Source: an uncultured Enterobacteriaceae bacterium (GTDB lineage: Bacteria > Myxococcota_A > UBA9042). Taken from it: a DNA stretch of 64,000 bases. Below the pieces are notes generated by a model. It did not search any database and was not told the origin of the DNA. It saw only the letters and a program-made list of their open reading frames with translations. Both the position numbers and the translations under genes were made by a program. The DNA is taken from the NCBI GenBank assembly GCA_964438735.1, contig CAYTLW010000007.1:8594-72593 (forward strand), written 5' to 3'. Shown here in pieces: positions 7,523-31,872 of this stretch. Position 1 is the first letter of the stretch, and every line of letters starts with the position of its first letter.

Positions 7523-8668
7523 ATGAGCTGTGCGGAGCCAGACCCCGAACATCCGCTCCAGGAGGACAGCACGTGGCTGTTCACCTGTCGGCATGAACAC
7601 GAACCCAGACTGGTAGAGGAGCTGACGCGACTGGGCTGCGAACCGGCTGCGCTGCGCACTCTGCTGCCCGGATTGGTGCAGGCGGACGGGCTCGGGGAGG
7701 CAACGCCGGATGGGCTGGCCCGGATGGATCCCGTCTGGGCGCTGCAGGTTCTGCCCGCCGCGTTGGCCATCTCCGGGGCCTCGATTCGCAAGCTGGCTCG
7801 CGCTGCGGTGGATGGGCTCGCTGCCGGACTCGATGAATTCGACGGCGCGTGGCGGCTGCACGGCCTGGTCCCGGGCATGTTCAAGGGCCAGCCCAAGCCG
7901 GCCATGGGCCGCCGACTGACCCTGCTGATCGAGGCCGTGCAAGACGAGTTGAAGCGTCGACGCCGGCGGGCGTGGCGGCGGTTGGCTGCCGACGAGCGCG
8001 AGCCTCAGGCGCTGGCGCAGTTGTTGTTGCTGGGACCGGAGCAGGCCTGGGTCTGCCTGTCGCCCTGTTTGGACCTGCCGGTCGGCGGCCACTGGCCCAG
8101 CTTGCTGCCCGCAGGCCTGGCCGCGGTAGCCAACGATCCTGCGGCGCCTTCGAGTGCATTCCGCAAGCTGGACGAGGCCCTGGCCTGCATGGGCAGGTGG
8201 CCGCGAGATGGCGACAGCGCGGTGGACCTGGGTGCAGCGCCTGGCGGATGGTCGCACGTGATGCTGCGACATGGCGCACGGGTACAAGCCGTCGATCGCT
8301 CGCCGCTGGCTGAACCGCTGATGCGTCACCCCCGTCTGCACTGGCAGCGCGGTGATGCGTTCCGATTCCGCCCCTCGGCGCCTGTCGACTGGCTGGTGGC
8401 AGACGTGGCAGCCTACCCCGAGCGCGTCGCCGAGCTGCTGGCCGACTGGTGCGGCGAACGCCTGGCGCGCACGATGGTGGTCCAGATGAAGTTCAAGGGT
8501 GAGACCGACTGGCAGGCCCTGGATGCAGCCCTGGCCACAGCCCGCCGACATGGCTACAGCGCTCGCGCCCGCCACTTCTTCAACGACAAGAATGAGGTCA
8601 CCCTGATGATCGCCGAACCCAGGGCAGACGTTGCAGCCGCCCGAGGCGAGGCCGAGGAGCAAACATGA
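7523..8668 (+). CDS. rlmM: 23S rRNA (cytidine-2'-O)-methyltransferase RlmM-like (THUMP-like N-domain plus FtsJ-type MTase)
   Basis: C-terminal half is collinear with E. coli RlmM/YgdE (VDLGAAPGGWSHV ... WLVADVAAYPERVAELLADWC ... MVVQMKFKGE ... NDKNEVTLM versus VDLGACPGGWT ... [21 protein letters not shown] ... IFNLKLPMK ... HDREEVTVH). Confidence 0.75.
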   Translation: MSCAEPDPEHPLQEDSTWLFTCRHEHEPRLVEELTRLGCEPAALRTLLPGLVQADGLGEATPDGLARMDPVWALQVLPAALAISGASIRKLARAAVDGLAAGLDEFDGAWRLHGLVPGMFKGQPKPAMGRRLTLLIEAVQDELKRRRRRAWRRLAADEREPQALAQLLLLGPEQAWVCLSPCLDLPVGGHWPSLLPAGLAAVANDPAAPSSAFRKLDEALACMGRWPRDGDSAVDLGAAPGGWSHVMLRHGARVQAVDRSPLAEPLMRHPRLHWQRGDAFRFRPSAPVDWLVADVAAYPERVAELLADWCGERLARTMVVQMKFKGETDWQALDAALATARRHGYSARARHFFNDKNEVTLMIAEPRADVAAARGEAEEQT

Positions 8669-20106: not shown

Positions 20107-22347
20107 ATGACCAAGCTCCTTGTCGCTTTTCCGCCGTTCCATCCGCCCACATCGCCGCCATTCGGCATCGCCGCTCTCAAGGGTGCGCTGTCCCGTTCGC
20201 GGCCCGACACGCAGGTCGTGCTCGCCGACTGGAACCTGGCCTTTTTCCGCCACTGGATATTCGAGCGACCAGACCACCTCTGCGCCTACCATCCAGATCG
20301 CTCCCTGGGACAGATCTGTCCGAGCACGCTGGTGGAACACGGCCGCGGTGCGGCGATCTGGGGCGAACTCTGCAAGCTGCCGACAGATGAGCCGGGGGCC
20401 ATGCGCTACATGCAGGCGGCGCAGCGCTTCGATGCCATCTACGCGACCCTGAGCTCCTATGTGCGCGGCTGGCTCAAACCCTTCGTCGAGCAGCGCTGTC
20501 GCCTCGACGAGCCCGTGGTGCAGGCCCTCTTCGGCGACGCCTTGCGCACCATCGAAAAAGAAGAGCCCGACCTGCTGGGGCTGTCGATCCTGGCCGAGCA
20601 GAACCTGCTCTGGGCGCTGGCCCTGGCCCGGCTGGCCAAAGAGCGCTACCAGGTAAACGTGGCCCTCGGCGGCGCCATGATCAGCCACCTGGACGCGGCA
20701 GAGATGCTCGGTGCGTTCCCGTGGGTAGACGCCCTCTTCACCGGAGAAGGCGAGACCAGCCTGGCGGCCTTCGTCGATGTGTTGGAAGGGCGCGGCGACC
20801 TGGAATCGGTGCCCGGACTGGTTCATCGCGGGGCCGATGGCAAGCCTTGCGCGCACGAACACGGCCCGCCGCCAGTTCTGAACGGCCTGCCGCCGGCGGA
20901 TTTCGGCGACCTGCCGCTGGCGGACTACCTGGCCCACGAGATCGTGCTGCCCATGGCCACCAGCCGGGGCTGCTACTGGGGCAAATGCACCTTCTGCAGC
21001 CACACCCGACCCTACGCCGCCGGCGTGCGCACCCGCCAGGCCAGCGCGGTGGTGGAGGACATGGCGAGCCAGGCCGAGCGCTATGGAGCGCGCTCCTTCC
21101 TGCTGGTGGACGAGGCCATCTCGCCGCACACCCTGCGCGAACTCTCCGAGGGGCTGCTGGAGCGGGGGCTGGACCTGCGCTGGGGAGCCGAAGGGGTACG
21201 CGTCGAGAAGCGCTTCGACGCCGAGCTGCTGGCCACCGCTCGACGGGCGGGTCTGCGCTGGCTCTACGTCGGCATCGAATCGGCGTCGCCCCGTCTGCTC
21301 GACCTCATCGACAAGGGCATCGAGCCCGAGGCCGTCGAGCGCTTCATCGCCGCCTGTCATGAGGCCCGCGTCGTGCCCCAGCTGTCCTTCATCGTTGGCA
21401 TACCGGGCACGACGCCCGAAGAGCTTGAGGTCGAGATCGACTTCATGCGCCGCCACCCGGTGGACGGCTCGCCTTTCGTGCTGTTGCTCGGCTCGCCCAT
21501 GCAGACCGAGCCCGATCGCCTGGGCATCACGGTGGAGGATCGTCACAGGCTCTTCGAGACGCCCGCAGGCGTCGTACACGCGCCCCGCTTCCACCACACG
21601 ACCCGGACGGGTTTGTCGCCCCAGCAGGCCGATCACCAGGTCGAGACCGCGTTGGCGGATGGTCGACCTCGCATGCGTCCCCACCTCGGCGAGGTGCACG
21701 CCATCACGCTGGCAGATACGGGCTTCTTCGACAGCGAGGAGCGTCCGTCACCCGAGCCTCCTCCGGCAGAGGTCGCCAGGCGCCTGCTAGAAGCCCAGGC
21801 CCGCACTCGGCCCTGGTGGGCCCTGCACATGGCCGGCTGCCTGGAGGCGACCGAGGACCTGCAGGAGGCCTACGACCTGGTCGAACAGGCGCTGCGCGAT
21901 GAACCCACCGACCAGGAGGCTGCCGCGCTATGGCTGCACATGGCCGCCATCTACAACCGTGGCGGACGGTCCGACCTGGTCCAAGCCATGTCCGAGACCG
22001 TCGACCTGGTCGCCGCCGCCGGTTCCGCGGCGCGCTCCGAATTGATGCGCTGCTCCGCCATGACGGGTGACGTACCAGCCGCCATCGAGTACGCCGAGGA
22101 GATGCTGGCCACCGGCTACGAATTCGCCGGCGCCTGGGAGCTGCTCGGCGAAATGCTCGAGCAGACAGGCGACCTGGAACGAGCCCGCGCCGCCTACCAA
22201 CAGGCCGAGGTGCGCGACTGGCCGAACGCCGAACTCAACGACGCCCAGGCGCGTTGTTTCGCGGCGCGAAAGAAGCATCGCCACGTGCGCAAACAAGAGG
22301 ACAAGGCGGCCCGCAAGCGGACGTTCTTCCTCAGTCCTGAAGATTGA
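20107..22347 (+). CDS. B12-binding-domain radical SAM protein with C-terminal TPR-like region
   Basis: N-terminal Rossmann-like B12-binding-type domain. Radical-SAM core with cysteine triad GCYWGKCTFCSHTRP (spacing Cx4Cx2C). C-terminal ~200 aa helical/TPR-like. Begins 36 nt after the nuoN stop on the same strand. Confidence 0.7.
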   Translation: MTKLLVAFPPFHPPTSPPFGIAALKGALSRSRPDTQVVLADWNLAFFRHWIFERPDHLCAYHPDRSLGQICPSTLVEHGRGAAIWGELCKLPTDEPGAMRYMQAAQRFDAIYATLSSYVRGWLKPFVEQRCRLDEPVVQALFGDALRTIEKEEPDLLGLSILAEQNLLWALALARLAKERYQVNVALGGAMISHLDAAEMLGAFPWVDALFTGEGETSLAAFVDVLEGRGDLESVPGLVHRGADGKPCAHEHGPPPVLNGLPPADFGDLPLADYLAHEIVLPMATSRGCYWGKCTFCSHTRPYAAGVRTRQASAVVEDMASQAERYGARSFLLVDEAISPHTLRELSEGLLERGLDLRWGAEGVRVEKRFDAELLATARRAGLRWLYVGIESASPRLLDLIDKGIEPEAVERFIAACHEARVVPQLSFIVGIPGTTPEELEVEIDFMRRHPVDGSPFVLLLGSPMQTEPDRLGITVEDRHRLFETPAGVVHAPRFHHTTRTGLSPQQADHQVETALADGRPRMRPHLGEVHAITLADTGFFDSEERPSPEPPPAEVARRLLEAQARTRPWWALHMAGCLEATEDLQEAYDLVEQALRDEPTDQEAAALWLHMAAIYNRGGRSDLVQAMSETVDLVAAAGSAARSELMRCSAMTGDVPAAIEYAEEMLATGYEFAGAWELLGEMLEQTGDLERARAAYQQAEVRDWPNAELNDAQARCFAARKKHRHVRKQEDKAARKRTFFLSPED

Positions 22348-23135: not shown

Positions 23136-23672
23136 CTAGGTGAACTTCACCGAGGGATTTGTCAGCTTTGTCGGGGCGAAACCATCCGCGGGCGTGCCGC
23201 CTGCCTTGACGTCGGCGACCTGCTTGAGTGCCCGTCCCACACACGCCTGCACGCAGGCGGGCTCGAGGCCAGCCTTCAGCCGGTGTGCGCAGAAGTGGCA
23301 TTTCTCCACTTTGCCCGTGGTGGCGTTGAACTGAGGCGCGCCATACGGGCACGCCCACTCACAACGCCGACATCCGACGCACTTGGCCTGGTCGATCTGG
23401 ACCGTGCCATCAGCGCCCTTTGTGATTGCGGTCTCCGGGCACGCCTTCAGGCAGGCCGGATCAGCGCAGTGGAAGCACGCCATTGAGACGAACTCCCGTT
23501 TGGGCGTCGGGTAGGTGCCACTCTCCGTGAACACCACCATGCGGTAGTTGACCGCGTCGGCCTTGTCCTTCGGACCAGGCAGGTAGGTGTTGTTCTCGAA
23601 CTTGCACGCAACCGCGCACGAATAGCAGCCGACGCACTTGGTGAGGTCGTATTCCCATCCTCTCTGTGCCAT
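23136..23672 (-). CDS. 4x[4Fe-4S] ferredoxin-type electron-transfer subunit (DmsB/PsrB-like) of the molybdoenzyme
   Basis: Four Cys clusters: CVGCYSCAVAC, CFHCADPACLKACP, CVGCRRCEWACP, CHFCAHRLKAGLEPACVQAC. Confidence 0.85.
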   Translation of the reverse strand: MAQRGWEYDLTKCVGCYSCAVACKFENNTYLPGPKDKADAVNYRMVVFTESGTYPTPKREFVSMACFHCADPACLKACPETAITKGADGTVQIDQAKCVGCRRCEWACPYGAPQFNATTGKVEKCHFCAHRLKAGLEPACVQACVGRALKQVADVKAGGTPADGFAPTKLTNPSVKFT

Positions 23673-26807: not shown

Positions 26808-27569
26808 CTACAGGCAGGCAGCGAAGAGCTTCTTGGAGCCCTTGCAGTGGCAGGCAGCGCAGTGGGCCGAGTCGACCTGCTTGCGCAACTGGGCTCCGAC
26901 GCCGGCACCCGGCGGCGAGGTCAGGTCGATGGCGACCAGGTCACCGTTCGCCTTCTTCGTGTGGCAGAACTCGCACTTCTGGTTGCCCATCAGCTTGTCG
27001 TTCGGCGGCAGTGTGAAGACTGTCTGGTGCAGGTTGTGCGCGACCTTGACCGACTCCTTGAGACTCTTCTCGGCGAACTTGTCGCCGTGGCAGCTCATGC
27101 AGGCGCCGTCCATCGCGAAGATGTAGCCAGGGGAATTGGGGTTGTGAACCGACTGCAGGTTCTTTGCGACGAACTCTGGCGGAATGACCGCACCGCCGCC
27201 GCCACCAGCGCCTGCTGGTCCGGCCGGTCCGGTGTCGCCCTTGTCGCCCTTGTCGCCCTTGTCACCCTTGGCGCCAGCAGCCCCTGGGTCACCCTTGTCA
27301 CCCTTGGCTCCTGAGTCGCCCTTTGGCCCCGGGTCACCCTTGTCGCCCTTGGCGCCATCAGCGCCCTTGGCTCCTGGGTCACCCTTGTCGCCCTTGGCTC
27401 CCGGGTCGCCCTTTTCTCCTTGGGCGCCCTGGTCGCCCTGGGCGCCAGCCTCTCCATTCTTGCCATCTTTCCCTGTTTCCCCGGTGCAGCCCGCTGCCAT
27501 CGCAGTTGCGAAGAGCAGCGCCGTGCCAAGGGCCAGGGTGCGTGAAGCTCGGAAAATACCGTTCATCAT
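26808..27569 (-). CDS. Lipoprotein triheme c-type cytochrome with ~31-triplet collagen-like (Gly-X-Y) stalk
   Basis: Signal peptide plus lipobox (LLFATAMAAGC). Residues 33-125 are uninterrupted GXY triplets (GKDGKNGEAGAQGDQGAQGEKGDPGAKGDKGDPGAKG...GDKGDKGDKGDTGPAGPAG). C-terminal domain has three CxxCH heme motifs (CMSCH, CEFCH, CAACH). First gene of the Mo-enzyme operon. Confidence 0.8.
   Translation of the reverse strand: MMNGIFRASRTLALGTALLFATAMAAGCTGETGKDGKNGEAGAQGDQGAQGEKGDPGAKGDKGDPGAKGADGAKGDKGDPGPKGDSGAKGDKGDPGAAGAKGDKGDKGDKGDTGPAGPAGAGGGGGAVIPPEFVAKNLQSVHNPNSPGYIFAMDGACMSCHGDKFAEKSLKESVKVAHNLHQTVFTLPPNDKLMGNQKCEFCHTKKANGDLVAIDLTSPPGAGVGAQLRKQVDSAHCAACHCKGSKKLFAACL
27192..27473 (-). 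repeat. Tandem 9-bp coding repeats (GGCGACAAG-type units encoding Gly-Asp-Lys / Gly-X-Y)
   Basis: Plus strand reads ...cttgtcgcccttgtcgcccttgtcacccttggc... repeated about 30 times. It encodes the collagen-like segment of the cytochrome. Confidence 0.8.
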
Positions 27570-27926
27570 CTACCTCGGTGATCAGCCCATTAGTGGGTCT
27601 GGCGGCCGCACACAGCGGTGCCTTCGGCGCGCTAATGTGCAGCAAGCGTGCCAAGCCGAACCTGGGCTTGTCCTGGATCGTGTGGCAGGCCAACCCCTCG
27701 TGGCGACGACATTAATTCGCCAGCTTTTTGGCCATGGGAATCGAGCCGCAGGCCATCTGGCGGCGAGTGTTACCTCAACGACACATTGCCATGTGAAGAG
27801 CGTTACGCAGGCGTAACATACGAAGGGGCCGGCCCGGTTCACGCGCCCATTTCTCGAGTGCCCTCGCGGCGTCCAGCCATGGCGCCGGTCGGGGTTCGGA
27901 GCGAGGTCAAGCAATGGAAGGTGACC

Positions 27927-27943
27927 TTGGCGTATGTCTTGCA
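27927..27943 (+). promoter_or_regulatory. Candidate sigma54 (-24/-12) promoter upstream of the binding-protein / kinase / sigma54-regulator operon
   Basis: TTGGCGTATGTCTTGCA: GG and GC elements at the canonical 12-nt spacing (consensus TGGCAC-N5-TTGCA), 27 nt upstream of ATG 27970. The -24 hexamer is imperfect (TGGCGT). Confidence 0.3.
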
Positions 27944-27969
27944 GTCTTGGTTGTCAGAGGGAGGACGCC

Positions 27970-28929
27970 ATGAGCGACGAGTCCCACTCCACGCAGGATC
28001 GTAAGCTGAAGGGCTTCGTCCTGGCGGGTCTGATCCTGGTCACCTCGACCAGCCTCGCCGCCATCGTTTGGGGCGGTAAAGTCGGCAATGTACGGGATGT
28101 AGAGATTCACGGCGCCGACGACACGGAGGCGAGACCCGAGGCCGACCAGCGCAAGCCATTGCGAGTGCTGGTGGCTTCCATGATCTCGCCCCGCTCGACG
28201 CTCGACGTCTACGGCGGCCTGGTCAAGGAGCTCGGCGACCTGGTCGGTCGTCGCGGGGTCCTGGTGCAGCGCCGCAACTATACCGAAGGCAACGAAGCCA
28301 TTCGCCACGGTGATGTGGACCTCGCCTTCATCTGCAGCGGCGCCTATGTGCAGAGTCAGGTCGAAGGTGGCTTCGCTGAACTGCTCGCGGTGCCGGTGAT
28401 CCAGGGGCTGGCCACCTACCAGGCCTACATCATCGTGCCGCGAGATAAACCGTGGAAGGAGTTGAAGGATCTGCGCGGCCAGCAAGCCGCGTACGTGGAC
28501 GCAGACTCCCTGACCGGCCGCGCCTACCTGCGTCATCGTCTCGTCGAGATGGGCGAGCGGGATGACCGCTTCTTCAAGAGTATCGTGTACACGGGCTCGC
28601 ACGACCGCTCCATCGAGGCCGTGGCACGGGGAATCGTCGACGTGGCCACCGTCGATCACCTGATCCTCGACATGATGGCCGAACAGCAGCCTGAGCTGCT
28701 GGACAAGATTCGAATCATCGAGCGCTCGCAGCCCTACGGGGCGCCCCCGGTTGTGGCGCCACGCGGTCAGGATCACGAACTTCGAGCCTCGCTGAAGAAG
28801 GCGCTGGCCAGCATCCACACCACCGAGGTGGGGGGCAAAACGCTGTCGCGCCTGCGCGTCGATCGGTTCGAGGCGGTGCCAACCAGCCACTACGACTCCG
28901 TGCGCAAGATCTGGGAGCCCGTTCGATGA
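27970..28929 (+). CDS. Periplasmic substrate-binding protein, PhnD/SsuA/transferrin family (sensor-associated)
   Basis: N-terminal TM/signal anchor. PhnD-like fold motifs (LRVLVASMISPRST...LAFICSGAYV...VPVIQGLATYQAYIIVPRD). GGAGG Shine-Dalgarno before ATG 27970. ATGA overlap with the downstream kinase. Confidence 0.6.
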   Translation: MSDESHSTQDRKLKGFVLAGLILVTSTSLAAIVWGGKVGNVRDVEIHGADDTEARPEADQRKPLRVLVASMISPRSTLDVYGGLVKELGDLVGRRGVLVQRRNYTEGNEAIRHGDVDLAFICSGAYVQSQVEGGFAELLAVPVIQGLATYQAYIIVPRDKPWKELKDLRGQQAAYVDADSLTGRAYLRHRLVEMGERDDRFFKSIVYTGSHDRSIEAVARGIVDVATVDHLILDMMAEQQPELLDKIRIIERSQPYGAPPVVAPRGQDHELRASLKKALASIHTTEVGGKTLSRLRVDRFEAVPTSHYDSVRKIWEPVR

Positions 28930-30482
28930 GGCTTGTCAGCCCGCTGGTCATCCTGAGGCGATCGCTGACCGCCCGCCTGCTTGCGATCGCCTGGGTGGCC
29001 ACTGTGGTCTTTGGGCTGGTCTTCGGCGCCATCACGCGTACGGTGGTCACCCGCGAACTCCGCGACAACCTGCATCTGCGGGCCAGCGCGTTGGGAGAGG
29101 GTTTGCGCCCTCTGGTCGAAAGCGCAGTGGCTACGGGCGATACCGTCGGCCTTCACATTGCGCTTGCAGAGGCGGTTCAGACCAATCCCTCGGTCCGCTA
29201 TGTCGTCGTGGTGGATGACGCCGGCAAACTGCGCGCCCACAGCTTCGCTCGGAGGCCGTCCACCGGCTTCATCCGCATCATCGACGCAGGACGACAGCAA
29301 GCCGTGCCCGCGACGCTGCAGACCGAGTTGGGTCTGCTACATGATGTGGCCCTCGAAGGCAGGAGTTCGGGTGCGCCGCGCATTCATGTGGGCGTGGACG
29401 AGAACTGGGTCAGCGAGACGGTGTCCATGTTGACGATCGCCTTCGCGATCGCCGGCGCTGTAGCGCTCTTCGTCGGTCTGGTCATCGCAAGCGCGGTGAC
29501 GTACTGGGTCTCACAGCCCCTGCTCCGGGTCGCGCGGGCGGCCGATGAAGTGGCGCACGCCATGACCGACCAAGCCCGATCCGGCGATGGCATCGTCGTG
29601 CCCCCGGGGTCGGGGCCCTGGCGCATCGAGAGTGCGTCGCCCATCGCGGAGATCGTGCAACTGAAGGAATCGTTCAACCGCCTGGCCCTGTCTCTTCACG
29701 ACAGCCAGGTCGGGCTGGAGCAGGCCCAGAAAGGGTTGATTCGCAGCGAGCGGATGGCGGCCCTGGGCGCCTTTGTCGCCGGCACCGCACACGCCATCAA
29801 CAATCCGCTCGGCGGGCTGCGCGCCTGCAACGAGATGATCGTCAAGAATCCAGATGATGTGGCGGGGCACCAGCGTTACGCCGGAATCTCACGAAAGGCC
29901 ATCGATCGCATCGACCGACTGGTGGGCCGACTGGTGAGTTTCGTCCGCCTGGACCAGGGCGAGCGGGGCGTCTTTGATGTCAATCACCAGATCGAGCCCA
30001 GCCTGGTGGTGGACAGTCTGGCGGCCAAGGGTCAGGACGTTCGCGTGGAGTTGGACCTGAGCGACGAGCCGCTGCCTGTACGCGGCATCGCCGAGGAGTT
30101 CGAGCAGGCGTTGACCAACCTGGTGCTCAACGCCATGCAGGCATCGCCGGCAGGCTCGGTGGTCACCGTTCGCTCCCGCCTGGCTCCAGCCGCCGATGCC
30201 GCCACTGGGCAACCGGACGGCGCTGTGGTTCAGGTTGAGGTCTTGGATCACGGGCCTGGCATCCCGGAGGCGCTGCACGATCGGATCTTCGAGCCCTTCT
30301 TCAGCACCAAACCCGAGGGCGAGGGCACCGGGCTGGGGCTTTGGATCGTCTGGGGGGTGCTCGAGCGCATGGGAGGCGGCATCAGCGTCGCCACGACAGA
30401 ATGGGGCGGCACGTCGTTCTTGATCGAGCTACCGGTGGCCGAAGCCGGCGCGGCCCTGCCGCAGGAGTCCACACATGGATGA
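28926..30482 (+). CDS. Sensor histidine kinase (two TM segments, HisKA + HATPase_c)
   Basis: H-box ERMAALGAFVAGTAHAINNPLGGL. N box, and G boxes (GTGLGLWIVWGVLERMGG). Confidence 0.85.
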   Translation: MRLVSPLVILRRSLTARLLAIAWVATVVFGLVFGAITRTVVTRELRDNLHLRASALGEGLRPLVESAVATGDTVGLHIALAEAVQTNPSVRYVVVVDDAGKLRAHSFARRPSTGFIRIIDAGRQQAVPATLQTELGLLHDVALEGRSSGAPRIHVGVDENWVSETVSMLTIAFAIAGAVALFVGLVIASAVTYWVSQPLLRVARAADEVAHAMTDQARSGDGIVVPPGSGPWRIESASPIAEIVQLKESFNRLALSLHDSQVGLEQAQKGLIRSERMAALGAFVAGTAHAINNPLGGLRACNEMIVKNPDDVAGHQRYAGISRKAIDRIDRLVGRLVSFVRLDQGERGVFDVNHQIEPSLVVDSLAAKGQDVRVELDLSDEPLPVRGIAEEFEQALTNLVLNAMQASPAGSVVTVRSRLAPAADAATGQPDGAVVQVEVLDHGPGIPEALHDRIFEPFFSTKPEGEGTGLGLWIVWGVLERMGGGISVATTEWGGTSFLIELPVAEAGAALPQESTHG

Positions 30483-31872
30483 GATCTGTGCCGATTGCAG
30501 ACATGTACTGGTGGTCGAGGACGAAGAGACGTTGCGCCTGCCCCTGGTCGACTTTCTCGAGTCGCGTGGCGCGCGCGTCACGGCGGTGGACAACGGCAAC
30601 GCAGGGATCGAGGCGCTGCTGCGCGCGGACTTCGACCTGGTCTTCACCGACATCCGGCTGCCGGGTGCAGACGGCTTTCAGATCCTGAAGCGAGCCCTCG
30701 AGATCTCGGCGCAGACCTGTGTTGTGGTGATGACCGCCTATGCCGACGTCAGCTCGGCCGTTCGGGCCATGCGGATGGGCGCCCACGACTACCTGGCCAA
30801 GCCCTTCTCATTCGACAGCGTGGACACGGTGCTCCTGCGCAGTTGCCGACAGAGCCAACTGGTCCGGGAGCGCGACGAGCTGCGGCGCGAGGCCGACGGC
30901 GAGTTCGCGATCTCCAACATCATCGCCTGCTCCATCGCCATGCAGCAGGTGCTGGACACCGTCAAACGGGTCGCCCATTCAGACGCCAGCGTCGTGCTGC
31001 AGGGCGAGACGGGCAGCGGCAAGGAGCTCGTCGCCGAGGCGCTGCACCGCCTCTCGCCACGGCATGACAAGCGCCTGGTCAAGCTGAACTGCGCGGCGGT
31101 GCCCGAGACCTTGATCGAGAGCGAAATGTTCGGGCACGAGCGCGGCGCGTTCACCGGCGCGGTGGCCCGCAAACGGGGTCGCTTCGAGGTCGCCGATGGC
31201 GGCACCCTCTTCCTGGACGAGATCGCCGACCTGAGCCCGGCCGGCCAGGCCAAGTTGCTGCGCGTACTGCAGGATCGCACCTTCGAGCGGGTCGGCGGAG
31301 TCGATACCCTGAAGGTGGACGTCCGCTTCATCGCCGCGAGTCACAGGGACCTGCGACAGCTCGCCCAGGAAGGCAAGTTCCGCGAGGACCTGTACTACCG
31401 CATCGGCGTGATCACCATCCGCGTGCCACCGCTGCGCGAGCGCCAGGCCGACATCGAGCCGCTGACCCGGGTGATGGTCGGCCGCGCGAGTCAGCAGTTG
31501 CGGCGCACCGAGCCGGACATCAGCGATGAGGTGATCGAGCGCCTGAAGGTCTATCCCTTCCCCGGCAACGTGCGCGAACTGGCCAACCTGACCGAGCGGG
31601 CTGTGACGCTCTGCGACGGGGATCGCCTGGAGGAGTGGCACTTTCCGCCGGAGGTGCGGGCCTCCAACGGAGCGGACGCTGACGATCCTGCGGCCGCCTT
31701 TCTCCCCCTGCAAGAGGCGTCGGCACGCTTCGAGCAGGAGTACGTCTCCGCGGCCCTACGCCGTACTGGCGGACGCAAGACGGAAGCGGCCAAGTTGCTG
31801 GGCATCTCTCGCAAGACGCTGTGGGCGCGCATGAAGGATGTGGAGACCCAGGCAGATGAGGCGACGGGCTGA
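30475..31872 (+). CDS. Sigma54-dependent response regulator (NtrC family: REC + AAA+ sigma54 activator + Fis-type HTH)
   Basis: REC domain (VLVVEDEE...DLVFTDIRLPGADG). Walker A GETGSGKE, GAFTGA-type motif ERGAFTGA. C-terminal HTH AAKLLGISRKTLWARM. Confidence 0.9.
   Translation: MDEICADCRHVLVVEDEETLRLPLVDFLESRGARVTAVDNGNAGIEALLRADFDLVFTDIRLPGADGFQILKRALEISAQTCVVVMTAYADVSSAVRAMRMGAHDYLAKPFSFDSVDTVLLRSCRQSQLVRERDELRREADGEFAISNIIACSIAMQQVLDTVKRVAHSDASVVLQGETGSGKELVAEALHRLSPRHDKRLVKLNCAAVPETLIESEMFGHERGAFTGAVARKRGRFEVADGGTLFLDEIADLSPAGQAKLLRVLQDRTFERVGGVDTLKVDVRFIAASHRDLRQLAQEGKFREDLYYRIGVITIRVPPLRERQADIEPLTRVMVGRASQQLRRTEPDISDEVIERLKVYPFPGNVRELANLTERAVTLCDGDRLEEWHFPPEVRASNGADADDPAAAFLPLQEASARFEQEYVSAALRRTGGRKTEAAKLLGISRKTLWARMKDVETQADEATG

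Follow-up and report, generated by a model that had tools for sequence, protein, structure and literature searches.

A collagen-like tract in a predicted lipoprotein triheme cytochrome encoded at the head of a molybdoenzyme operon

In a 64,000-nucleotide stretch of DNA from an uncultured bacterium (deposited as Enterobacteriaceae; GTDB lineage Bacteria; Myxococcota_A; UBA9042), we describe a gene that encodes, in this order, a signal peptide with a lipobox, 31 Gly-X-Y triplets, a Gly5 hinge and a 127-aa triheme c-type cytochrome domain. The stretch comprises positions 8,594 to 72,593 of contig CAYTLW010000007.1 in GenBank assembly GCA_964438735.1 and is called the window in the following. The gene is the first of an operon that continues with a molybdopterin oxidoreductase (MopB) bearing a signal for twin-arginine translocation (Tat), a 4Fe-4S protein and a NarJ/TorD-like chaperone. 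In our view, the whole is best explained if the product is a lipid-anchored triheme partner cytochrome of the MopB/Fe-S enzyme that is carried on a collagen-like, most likely trimeric, tether, a reading that we favour somewhat over its alternatives taken together.

Results

A first-pass annotation of the window, made from the letters alone, had proposed a lipid anchor, 93 residues of uninterrupted Gly-X-Y and a domain with three CxxCH motifs within one protein. Translation and the Pfam Collagen model bear this architecture out, as a single open reading frame (ORF, 26808–27569) joins the signal peptide, the tract and the heme domain, and the 93 residues are indeed 31 unbroken triplets at residues 30–122 (Table 1). 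The heme domain and the adjacent MopB gene agree in their GC content at third codon positions (0.88 each), and three independent JGI assemblies contain the complete ORF without a difference. Translation probably starts at the second ATG, as the element GAGG lies 6 nt upstream of it and as the orthologues begin with MNGIFRASR, those of L017 and L018 at the equivalent of the window's second Met (numbers preceded by L or P are our handles for sequences outside the window).

The JGI gene call for the contig is a 101-aa product beginning at Met153, which must be wrong because it lacks a signal peptide. In P0001, P0005 and P0013 likewise only the C-terminal 98–108 aa are called, with loss of signal peptide and Gly-X-Y tract. 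P0009 may be similarly truncated by gene callers. As gene callers often cut these ORFs, the collagen-cytochrome architecture is under-represented in protein databases. The short calls by JGI and other pipelines, for the window gene as for several relatives, are what would be expected if the tract were an artefact of annotation or assembly, or a non-functional low-complexity expansion, and the true gene were the 101-aa product. However, c-type cytochromes must be exported and this product has no signal peptide, while the complete ORF recurs unchanged in the three assemblies, is preceded by a Shine-Dalgarno sequence and a sigma-54 promoter, and has full-length orthologue calls in other assemblies. 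This reading is already refuted, and we give it next to no credence. An antisense ORF at 27184–27816 on the plus strand was rejected as the real gene.

The signal peptide, which carries Arg8 and Arg10 ahead of a hydrophobic core and is 89–96 % identical to those of L017 and L018, ends in an AAGC lipobox, so that Cys28 is predicted to be lipid-modified. Nearly all homologues have an equivalent Cys (LTAC, LVGC, LVAC, ISAC, TAGC and others); it is followed by Thr in the window protein and by Ser, Ala, Glu or Gly in the relatives. Inner-membrane retention is signalled at this +2 position by Asp in E. coli and by Lys in Myxococcus, both being lineage-specific rules, and under them the +2 residue would favour anchoring in the outer membrane. 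The location at the inner-membrane face given in the first-pass annotation was an assumption.

The Gly-X-Y tract starts at residue 30, one residue past the position next to Cys28, and the Gly register as such spans Gly27 to Gly126, equal to 34 triplets when lipobox and hinge are counted. Pfam Collagen (PF01391) recognizes it with 55.3 bits against a gathering cut-off of 27.2 (E 5.7e-15), and the collagen regions of the NCBIfam SclA, SclB and Lcl models match it at E 1e-15 to 1e-19. Its composition includes 15 Lys, 15 Asp, 14 Ala, 7 Pro and 3 Glu. It is thus as rich in Lys and Asp as initially noted, whereas its richness in Pro had been overstated (7.5 %), and the proposed likeness to bacterial collagens such as Scl holds, here to charge-stabilised ones like Scl2. 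The charges are distributed asymmetrically over the X and Y positions, with a ratio of 16:2 for acidic residues and of 2:13 for Lys. Lys(Y)-Gly-Asp/Glu(X) pairs number 12 versus 6.5 expected from shuffles (P ~1.5e-4), and they exceed shuffles in all five close orthologues as well. Within the tract, internal repeats of 45 and 90 bp are 78–80 % identical at the DNA level; they have diverged by about 20 %, yet every Gly is retained. At the far end, the hinge reads GGGG, GGG or GSG in orthologues. No further run of at least seven Gly-X-Y triplets was found in any frame of the window. Calculated with 0.286 nm per residue, the tract would be about 27 nm long if triple-helical, and 27–37 nm in the orthologues.

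To place the cytochrome among its relatives, its heme domain was searched exhaustively with HMMER against 1.84 billion representative proteins. The 18 matches include 13 real ones besides the self-match, which marks a very rare family, extended in a profile search by several small lipoproteins (about 144 aa) that form a group. A word-indexed protein search with the heme domain gave a truncated self-match only, 185,579 reference genomes, when scanned, yielded a single large multiheme protein that is unrelated (L011), and a metagenome scan gave one match (L012). In the databases, the members are named 'hypothetical protein' or, in the case of short members at JGI, 'nitrate reductase cytochrome c-type subunit'.

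Close orthologues were located through MopB subunits 59–82 % identical to that of the window, after which the upstream genes were read. Five were recovered, four as complete genes and one (L021) ended by the edge of its contig, and all share the lipobox, Gly-X-Y tract and triheme architecture. Compared to 253 aa and 31 uninterrupted triplets in the window protein, the cytochromes measure 256 aa with 33 (L017), 284 aa with 43 (L018) and 273 aa with 39 uninterrupted triplets (L019), 274 aa with 5 + 34 triplets (L004), and at least 176 aa with at least 14 triplets (L021). Every one of these tracts is rich in Lys and Asp(Glu) and holds 12–16 Lys-Gly-Asp/Glu motifs. Identity to the window protein amounts to 60–75 % in the tether and 59–71 % in the heme domain, and in the alignment no Gly is out of register and all gaps are whole triplets.

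Six more distant relatives also keep Gly-X-Y tracts, whereby the composition ranges from Pro-rich (P0004, P0020) over Ala-rich (L012) to acidic (P0016, L008). Over more than 200 triplets from at least ten lineages, with strongly divergent X and Y compositions, the register is interrupted only twice. Since tracts of different composition share the same register, the periodicity itself appears to be under selection, and the tract looks selected rather than accidental. The first-pass annotation would have dismissed the tract as a lineage-specific expansion if homologues lacked it; within the clade, the five close orthologues and the six distant relatives retain it. In every member with such a tract, Gly-X-Y begins 1–4 residues past the lipid Cys. 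In P0003, P0012, P0014, P0016 and L008, short Gly-X-Y runs alternate with Cys-bounded repeats of about 22 aa (C-T-V-x-D-N-G-D-G-T-x-T-x-x-C) that match Pfam PF19079, the 'collagen-flanked surface repeat' known as a module of collagen-like surface proteins. The DNGDG motif looks like a calcium-binding loop. The most distant members, P0021–P0033, only have Gly7, Pro-rich or ~15-residue linkers (about 15–30 residues), and P0018 and P0019 have a plain signal peptide; the short-linker relatives occupy the same four-gene module. From these comparisons, the tether is a conserved feature, and its collagen form is specific to the clade rather than universal in the family.

A distant homologue with lipobox, 19 Gly-X-Y triplets, two collagen-flanked repeats and triheme domain is found in three independent assemblies (L008 6548–7297, L009 2833–3582, L010 2080–2811), in each with an in-frame TAG within the first repeat. 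Next to it, a short MopB of 755 aa is encoded that is followed by neither an Fe-S nor a chaperone gene, and we regard the whole as probably a decaying copy of the module. One 18-bp GAPGED unit present in L008 and L009 is absent from L010.

The heme domain qualifies as a multiheme cytochrome c by three CxxCH motifs that are invariant or nearly so in the family alignment, together with the signal peptide. Candidate distal ligands are His142, His178 and His181. With 19.8 bits the window protein stays below the Pfam gathering score of Cytochrome_C7 (24.8), which the relative P0020 just exceeds (25.2 bits). Matches to MtrC domains II and IV are weak and below the Pfam cut-off for the window protein, and among PDB sequences MtrC is again matched weakly. 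NapB is matched at E ~0.04 only, and membership in this family was rejected. An AlphaFold2 model of the domain (29-sequence alignment) is of low confidence, with a predicted local distance difference test (pLDDT) score of 62 and a predicted template modelling score of 0.51, and a Foldseek search of this low-confidence model against the PDB gave no match with E <6.

Two features distinguish the subfamily of the window protein. Extra Cys residues at 242, directly past a heme motif (CxxCH-C), and at the penultimate or near-terminal position 252 (26811–26846, minus strand) recur at the same positions in L004, L012 and L016–L021, and are restricted to the subfamily with long Lys/Asp-rich or Ala/Pro-rich Gly-X-Y tracts. 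A disulfide of these residues, intra- or inter-chain, could staple the heads. Furthermore, His181 (~27027–27029, minus strand), the likely distal ligand of one heme, belongs to an AHxLH motif in the window subfamily, whereas other subfamilies have Met as likely ligand one position later (AHxxM); such a ligand switch implies a shift in heme potential between the clades.

The operon genes are co-directional and separated by gaps of 42, 36 and 88 bp. Gene order and annotation scans confirm the earlier suggestion that the cytochrome gene comes first in an operon with a Tat-dependent molybdoenzyme devoid of a membrane subunit, as the operon encodes no NrfD-type or other membrane protein of this kind. 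Elsewhere in the window, no convincing other cytochrome or quinol dehydrogenase was found. The order is also kept outside the window: all nine distinct related contigs of sufficient length have the cytochrome gene followed by those of an orthologous MopB (38–57 % identity), an Fe-S protein (50–67 %) and the chaperone. The cytochrome gene is always adjacent to the MopB orthologue and first in the operon.

MopB falls into the Psr/Ttr/Arr superclade and matches no named equivalog. Its best NCBIfam score is 321.8 bits for TtrA against a cut-off of 1750, and ArrA reaches 88.7 of 1600 bits; the nearest PDB structures are PsrA (E 4e-28) and ArrA (E 4e-20). Likewise, the Fe-S subunit matches DmsB (E 2.9e-41), TtrB (E 3.9e-32) and ArrB (E 2.4e-31), all under the respective cut-offs. 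Membership in ArrA/ArrB was consequently rejected (ArrB 109 versus 450 bits), as was membership in TtrABC (TtrB 111.6 versus 416 bits, and no TtrC-type membrane subunit in the operon).

Upstream of the operon, and divergent from it, lies a triad of genes for an ArrX/AioX-type oxyanion sensor (X), a histidine kinase (S) and a sigma-54-dependent response regulator (R), which often accompanies the module in related contigs as well. The X protein matches PhnD and PtxB far more weakly than ArrX and AioX, and keeps in its motif DLAFIC the Cys that marks the AioX/ArxX/ArrX subfamily (PMC5908839). The arrangement is that of ArrXSR, with an ArrX-type sensor, a kinase and a regulator adjoining the enzyme genes. 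The candidate sigma-54 promoter of the operon is the sole match in a regular-expression scan of the 364-bp upstream region, and similar GG-N10-GC elements precede the orthologous genes in L016, L015 and L012. Because an ArrX-like sensor triad and a sigma-54 element stand upstream of the operon, induction by an arsenic oxyanion is suggested. Sensor, kinase and sigma-54 activator would turn the operon on in response to a signal that is probably arsenate or a related oxyanion. The operon points to an unnamed molybdoenzyme clade under ArrX-type control.

An arsenic oxyanion is also our leading guess for the substrate, owing to the ArrX-like sensor and to the genomic neighbourhoods of two relatives. 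The relative in L005 (1–3409) adjoins three ArsR-type regulators and an ACR3/SBF-type permease, and the nearest plasmid-borne MopB homologue (29 % identical), L013 on the Citrobacter arsenatis plasmid NZ_CP037863.1, sits in an arsRDABC arsenic island together with a DsrO-like Fe-S protein. The MopB clade may accordingly represent an unrecognised family of arsenic or antimony oxidoreductases.

Two further observations concern the surroundings of the operon. In L016 (5377–7635) it goes on with genes for a TatA/E protein and a MOT1-type molybdate transporter, which fits a self-contained Tat- and molybdenum-dependent module. Convergent to the chaperone gene, a B12-binding radical SAM protein with tetratricopeptide repeats (743–748 aa) is encoded at 20107–22347 of the plus strand and is kept in all four close orthologous loci, namely the window, L017 (9421–11652), L018 (9412–11643) and L019 (6625–8871). 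Its best NCBIfam match is a sub-threshold one to a C-methyltransferase of ribosomally synthesized and post-translationally modified peptides. A gene for a MoeA/MobB fusion comes after it in L017 and L018. A link between the radical SAM gene and the operon is possible.

Table 1. Features of the cytochrome gene, its operon and the divergent regulatory genes (positions in the window)
Feature	Position	Strand	Basis and remarks
Cytochrome ORF, 253 aa	26808..27569	minus	translation
Signal peptide, residues 1-27, MMNGIFRASRTLALGTALLFATAMAAG	27489..27569	minus	translation
Lipobox Cys28, predicted lipid-modified mature N-terminus	27486..27488	minus	A-A-G-C closing the hydrophobic region
Collagen-like tract, 31 uninterrupted Gly-X-Y triplets, residues 30-122 (93 aa)	27204..27482	minus	translation, Pfam, NCBIfam
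Gly5 hinge, residues 122-126, junction of tract and heme domain	27192..27206	minus	translation
Triheme c-type cytochrome domain, residues 127-253	26811..27191	minus	three CxxCH motifs
CxxCH motifs at residues 157 (CMSCH), 199 (CEFCH), 237 (CAACH)	27087-27101, 26961-26975, 26847-26861	minus	
Shine-Dalgarno GAGG	27573..27576	minus	3 nt before first ATG, 6 nt before second ATG (27566)
Candidate sigma-54 (-24/-12) promoter, TGGCACGCTTGCTGCA	27638..27653	minus	~70 nt upstream of start codon
Tat-exported MopB catalytic subunit, 1018 aa	23709..26765	minus	Pfam TAT_signal, Molybdop_Fe4S4, Molybdopterin, Molydop_binding
Four-cluster [4Fe-4S] electron-transfer subunit, 178 aa, DmsB/ArrB/TtrB-like, without own signal peptide	23136..23672	minus	NCBIfam
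NarJ/TorD-family maturation chaperone, 225 aa	22370..23047	minus	NCBIfam DMSO_red_II_cha E 3.9e-18, TorD E 9e-8; Pfam Nitrate_red_del (JGI annotation)
ArrX/AioX-type periplasmic oxyanion-binding sensor (X)	27934..28929	plus, divergent from operon	PDB ArrX 6x6b E 6.8e-49, AioX 6esk E 2.6e-31
Sensor histidine kinase (S)	28926..30482	plus	NCBIfam, Pfam HisKA/HATPase_c; 4-bp overlap with X gene
Sigma-54-dependent NtrC-type response regulator (R)	30475..31872	plus	NCBIfam AtoC E 6e-129, NtrC E 3e-128; Pfam Response_reg, Sigma54_activat, HTH_8

Discussion

We propose that the cytochrome would act as dedicated electron partner and only membrane tether of a soluble periplasmic MopB/Fe-S heterodimer, docking to the Fe-S subunit and connecting the enzyme to the respiratory chain as NapB, PcrC or CymA do for their enzymes. 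Most likely, three chains gathered by their N-terminal lipids would form a triple helix to which Lys-Gly-Asp/Glu charge pairs lend stability, resulting in a thin rod of about 27 nm (27–37 nm in the orthologues) with the Gly hinge at its far end and three heme heads. Each head might dock one enzyme, and the rod would then cluster three of them while fixing the distance, reach and height of the heads. The first-pass annotation had seen in the stalk a way to bridge the periplasm and in the lipoprotein the electron conduit, but as a collagen helix carries no redox centres, a rod of this kind cannot conduct electrons and could only position the heads. Conduction along the stalk itself was rejected for this reason. 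Electrons would instead enter or leave the heads via other periplasmic or membrane redox proteins.

Besides holding the protein at the membrane, the lipid anchor may nucleate the helix: Gly-X-Y begins directly past the acylated Cys, so that the ends of three chains would be brought into line by their acyl clusters within one leaflet. Collagen-model peptides, as used in peptide-amphiphile work, are stabilised by lipid tails at the N-terminus. In the host-guest peptides of Persikov, Ramshaw and Brodsky, Lys(Y)-Gly-Asp/Glu(X) is reportedly the inter-chain salt-bridge arrangement that stabilises triple helices. Scl2.28, whose composition with little Pro and much Lys and Asp is like that of the tract described here, forms a triple helix melting at 35.6 °C (PMC8968730). 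Judged from its sequence, trimerisation of the tract is plausible, and we lean slightly towards it.

Several findings weigh against a trimeric stalk of this kind and against the function assigned to it. Bacterial collagens usually possess a trimerisation or nucleation domain, and Pfam and NCBIfam scans detected none flanking the tract, be it a V domain, a coiled coil or a C-terminal globular trimer. The Pro content of the tract is low, and AlphaFold2 returned only monomer models of low confidence, with a mean pLDDT of 47 for the full-length protein (19-sequence alignment; 35–43 in the tract) and of 62 for the domain. The internal repeats of 45 and 90 bp and the 18-bp copy-number polymorphism in a relative imply that slippage alone can generate and preserve the Gly-X-Y register. 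Relatives with short Pro/Gly linkers serve the same enzyme module, which means that a long stalk is dispensable for the core electron-transfer function, and with a rigid rod of 27 nm the heads would be kept at a long distance from the anchoring membrane, without evident advantage. As for the enzyme, MopB lies far under the equivalog cut-offs of ArrA and TtrA, and the substrate is guessed from the regulator and from arsenic genes next to relatives.

Many of these findings would suit a tract that is a monomeric flexible leash, extended in a polyproline-II-like manner, with a Gly periodicity that is a by-product of repeat expansion in multiples of 9 bp. Such a leash would agree with the plain Gly7, Pro-rich or ~15-residue linkers that other members pair with the same enzyme module, with the repeats, the polymorphism between L010 and L008/L009, the range of 31 to 43 triplets among close orthologues and the lack of a trimerisation domain in the scans, and flexibly linked tethered cytochromes, e.g. 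cytochrome cy and PgcA, are well known. Slippage without selection is, however, difficult to reconcile with a register interrupted only twice across lineages whose X and Y compositions diverge, or with internal repeats that differ by a fifth of their DNA without a single Gly lost. The charge asymmetry and the enrichment of Lys-Gly-Asp/Glu suit a triple helix and not a random coil, and relatives pair the tract with collagen-flanked surface repeats. We therefore consider the leash possible, but rather unlikely.

A location at the cell surface, where the cytochrome on its collagen-like stalk would, like the lipoproteins MtrC, OmcA and PgcA, deliver electrons to minerals or partners outside the cell, appears far less probable still. 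The +2 residue is not of the inner-membrane retention type by the E. coli or Myxococcus rules, the heme domain is weakly similar to MtrC/MtrF domains II and IV, and a repeat in relatives has 'surface repeat' in its Pfam name; the collagen-like proteins known from bacteria are, moreover, structures of the cell surface (PMC8968730). Against this, the gene invariably heads the operon of a Tat-exported periplasmic enzyme that has no other electron partner or anchor, the surroundings contain no genes for a porin-cytochrome or for type II secretion, the window holds no other multiheme cytochrome, and the similarity to MtrC is of a generic multiheme kind that stays under the Pfam cut-off for the window protein. 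The tethered, most likely trimeric partner cytochrome could also be extended to a bolder version, in which a lipid-clamped homotrimeric collagen helix is a periplasm-spanning ruler of 27–37 nm that hangs from one of the membranes, possibly the outer, and keeps three triheme heads, with three copies of a hitherto unrecognised arsenic-oxyanion oxidoreductase, at a set height close to the opposite membrane. This we regard as a speculative idea with a low chance of being right.

The first-pass annotation knew of no described collagen-cytochrome fusion, and full-text literature searches combining collagen with cytochrome, CXXCH, lipoprotein or periplasm agree, as none was found in them. A search on triheme partners of tetrathionate or arsenate reductases returned nothing relevant either, and the words 'lipoprotein' and 'periplasm' are absent from a 2022 review of prokaryotic collagen-like proteins (PMC8968730). 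Bacterial collagens and tethered cytochromes are each known separately, but their combination appears to be undescribed. With it, a stalk of the collagen type may have come to light in a bacterial respiratory chain for the first time; if the periplasmic ruler were true, neither a bacterial periplasm nor any electron-transport chain would have provided a collagen triple helix before.

The collagen-like proteins known in bacteria serve as surface adhesins, spore filaments or phage fibres, and the known tethered cytochromes have floppy linkers. A respiratory cytochrome with a conserved tether of collagen type would unite the two fields. If trimeric, it would represent a rigid, length-tunable spacer that sets redox heads and molybdoenzyme at a fixed distance from the membrane, which would bear on the poorly understood layout of electron carriers across the 25–30 nm periplasm. 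The system is small, with a protein of 25 kDa, and could be a natural scaffold with which to engineer redox proteins on collagen rods. The MopB clade under ArrX-type control, in turn, may widen the set of known arsenic-cycling enzymes.

Comparison with Known Systems

With Scl1, Scl2 and other PF01391 collagens, the tract shares a long uninterrupted Gly-X-Y run without hydroxyproline, the low Pro content, the richness in Lys and Asp, and the preference for acidic residues in X and Lys in Y. Scl proteins, however, are adhesins that trimerise through a V domain at the N-terminus and are fixed to the wall by a C-terminal LPXTG anchor, whereas the window protein lacks a V domain, carries its lipid anchor at the N-terminus, bears a redox head and belongs to a periplasmic operon of a Gram-negative type organism. 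It has 31 triplets compared to about 79 in Scl2, and scores 70.6 against a required 400 bits and 60 against 325 bits with the Scl adhesin models NF038330 and NF038329, matching in the collagen region only and lacking LPXTG.

Cytochrome cy of Rhodobacter, PgcA of Geobacter and the lipoprotein cytochromes of Gram-positive bacteria resemble it in that an N-terminal anchor and a low-complexity linker restrict the radius of the head. Cytochrome cy serves bc1 and cbb3 and not a molybdoenzyme. The linkers of these proteins are Ala/Pro-rich or Pro-Thr repeats, monomeric and in no case Gly-X-Y, in contrast to the tether of the window protein. PgcA, a triheme cytochrome likewise predicted to be a lipoprotein, is rich in proline repeats, and circular dichroism did not find collagen-like structure in it (bioRxiv 10.1101/172775).

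Regarding the enzyme, the window operon follows NapB, PcrC and TorC-type partners and ArrAB/CymA, where a Tat-exported periplasmic molybdenum bis(pyranopterin guanine dinucleotide) enzyme without NrfD-type anchor uses a c-type cytochrome. It differs in that its cytochrome belongs to another, very rare family with three hemes, a lipid anchor and, in the clade, a collagen-like stalk. The AioXSR, ArxXSR and ArrXSR operons correspond to it in the divergent X-S-R triad, with an X closest to ArrX, and in the sigma-54 activator R with its promoter, but the catalytic subunit in the window is not ArrA, ArxA or AioA, and a lipoprotein cytochrome is added.

Two further proteins come close in build. Braun's lipoprotein Lpp, an alpha-helical coiled coil of about 8 nm, forms a trimeric rod that is anchored by lipid and reaches across part of the periplasm, and the collagen region of Bucl8 from Burkholderia is described as extracellular. 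The latter, a collagen-like region on an outer-membrane efflux protein, is a Gram-negative example of fusion to a functional, non-adhesin trimeric protein (PMC8968730). Neither of the two bears a redox domain, which sets them apart from the window protein. By analogy, the latter would act like the tethered cytochromes cy and PgcA, while it resembles a bacterial collagen of the Scl2 type in sequence.

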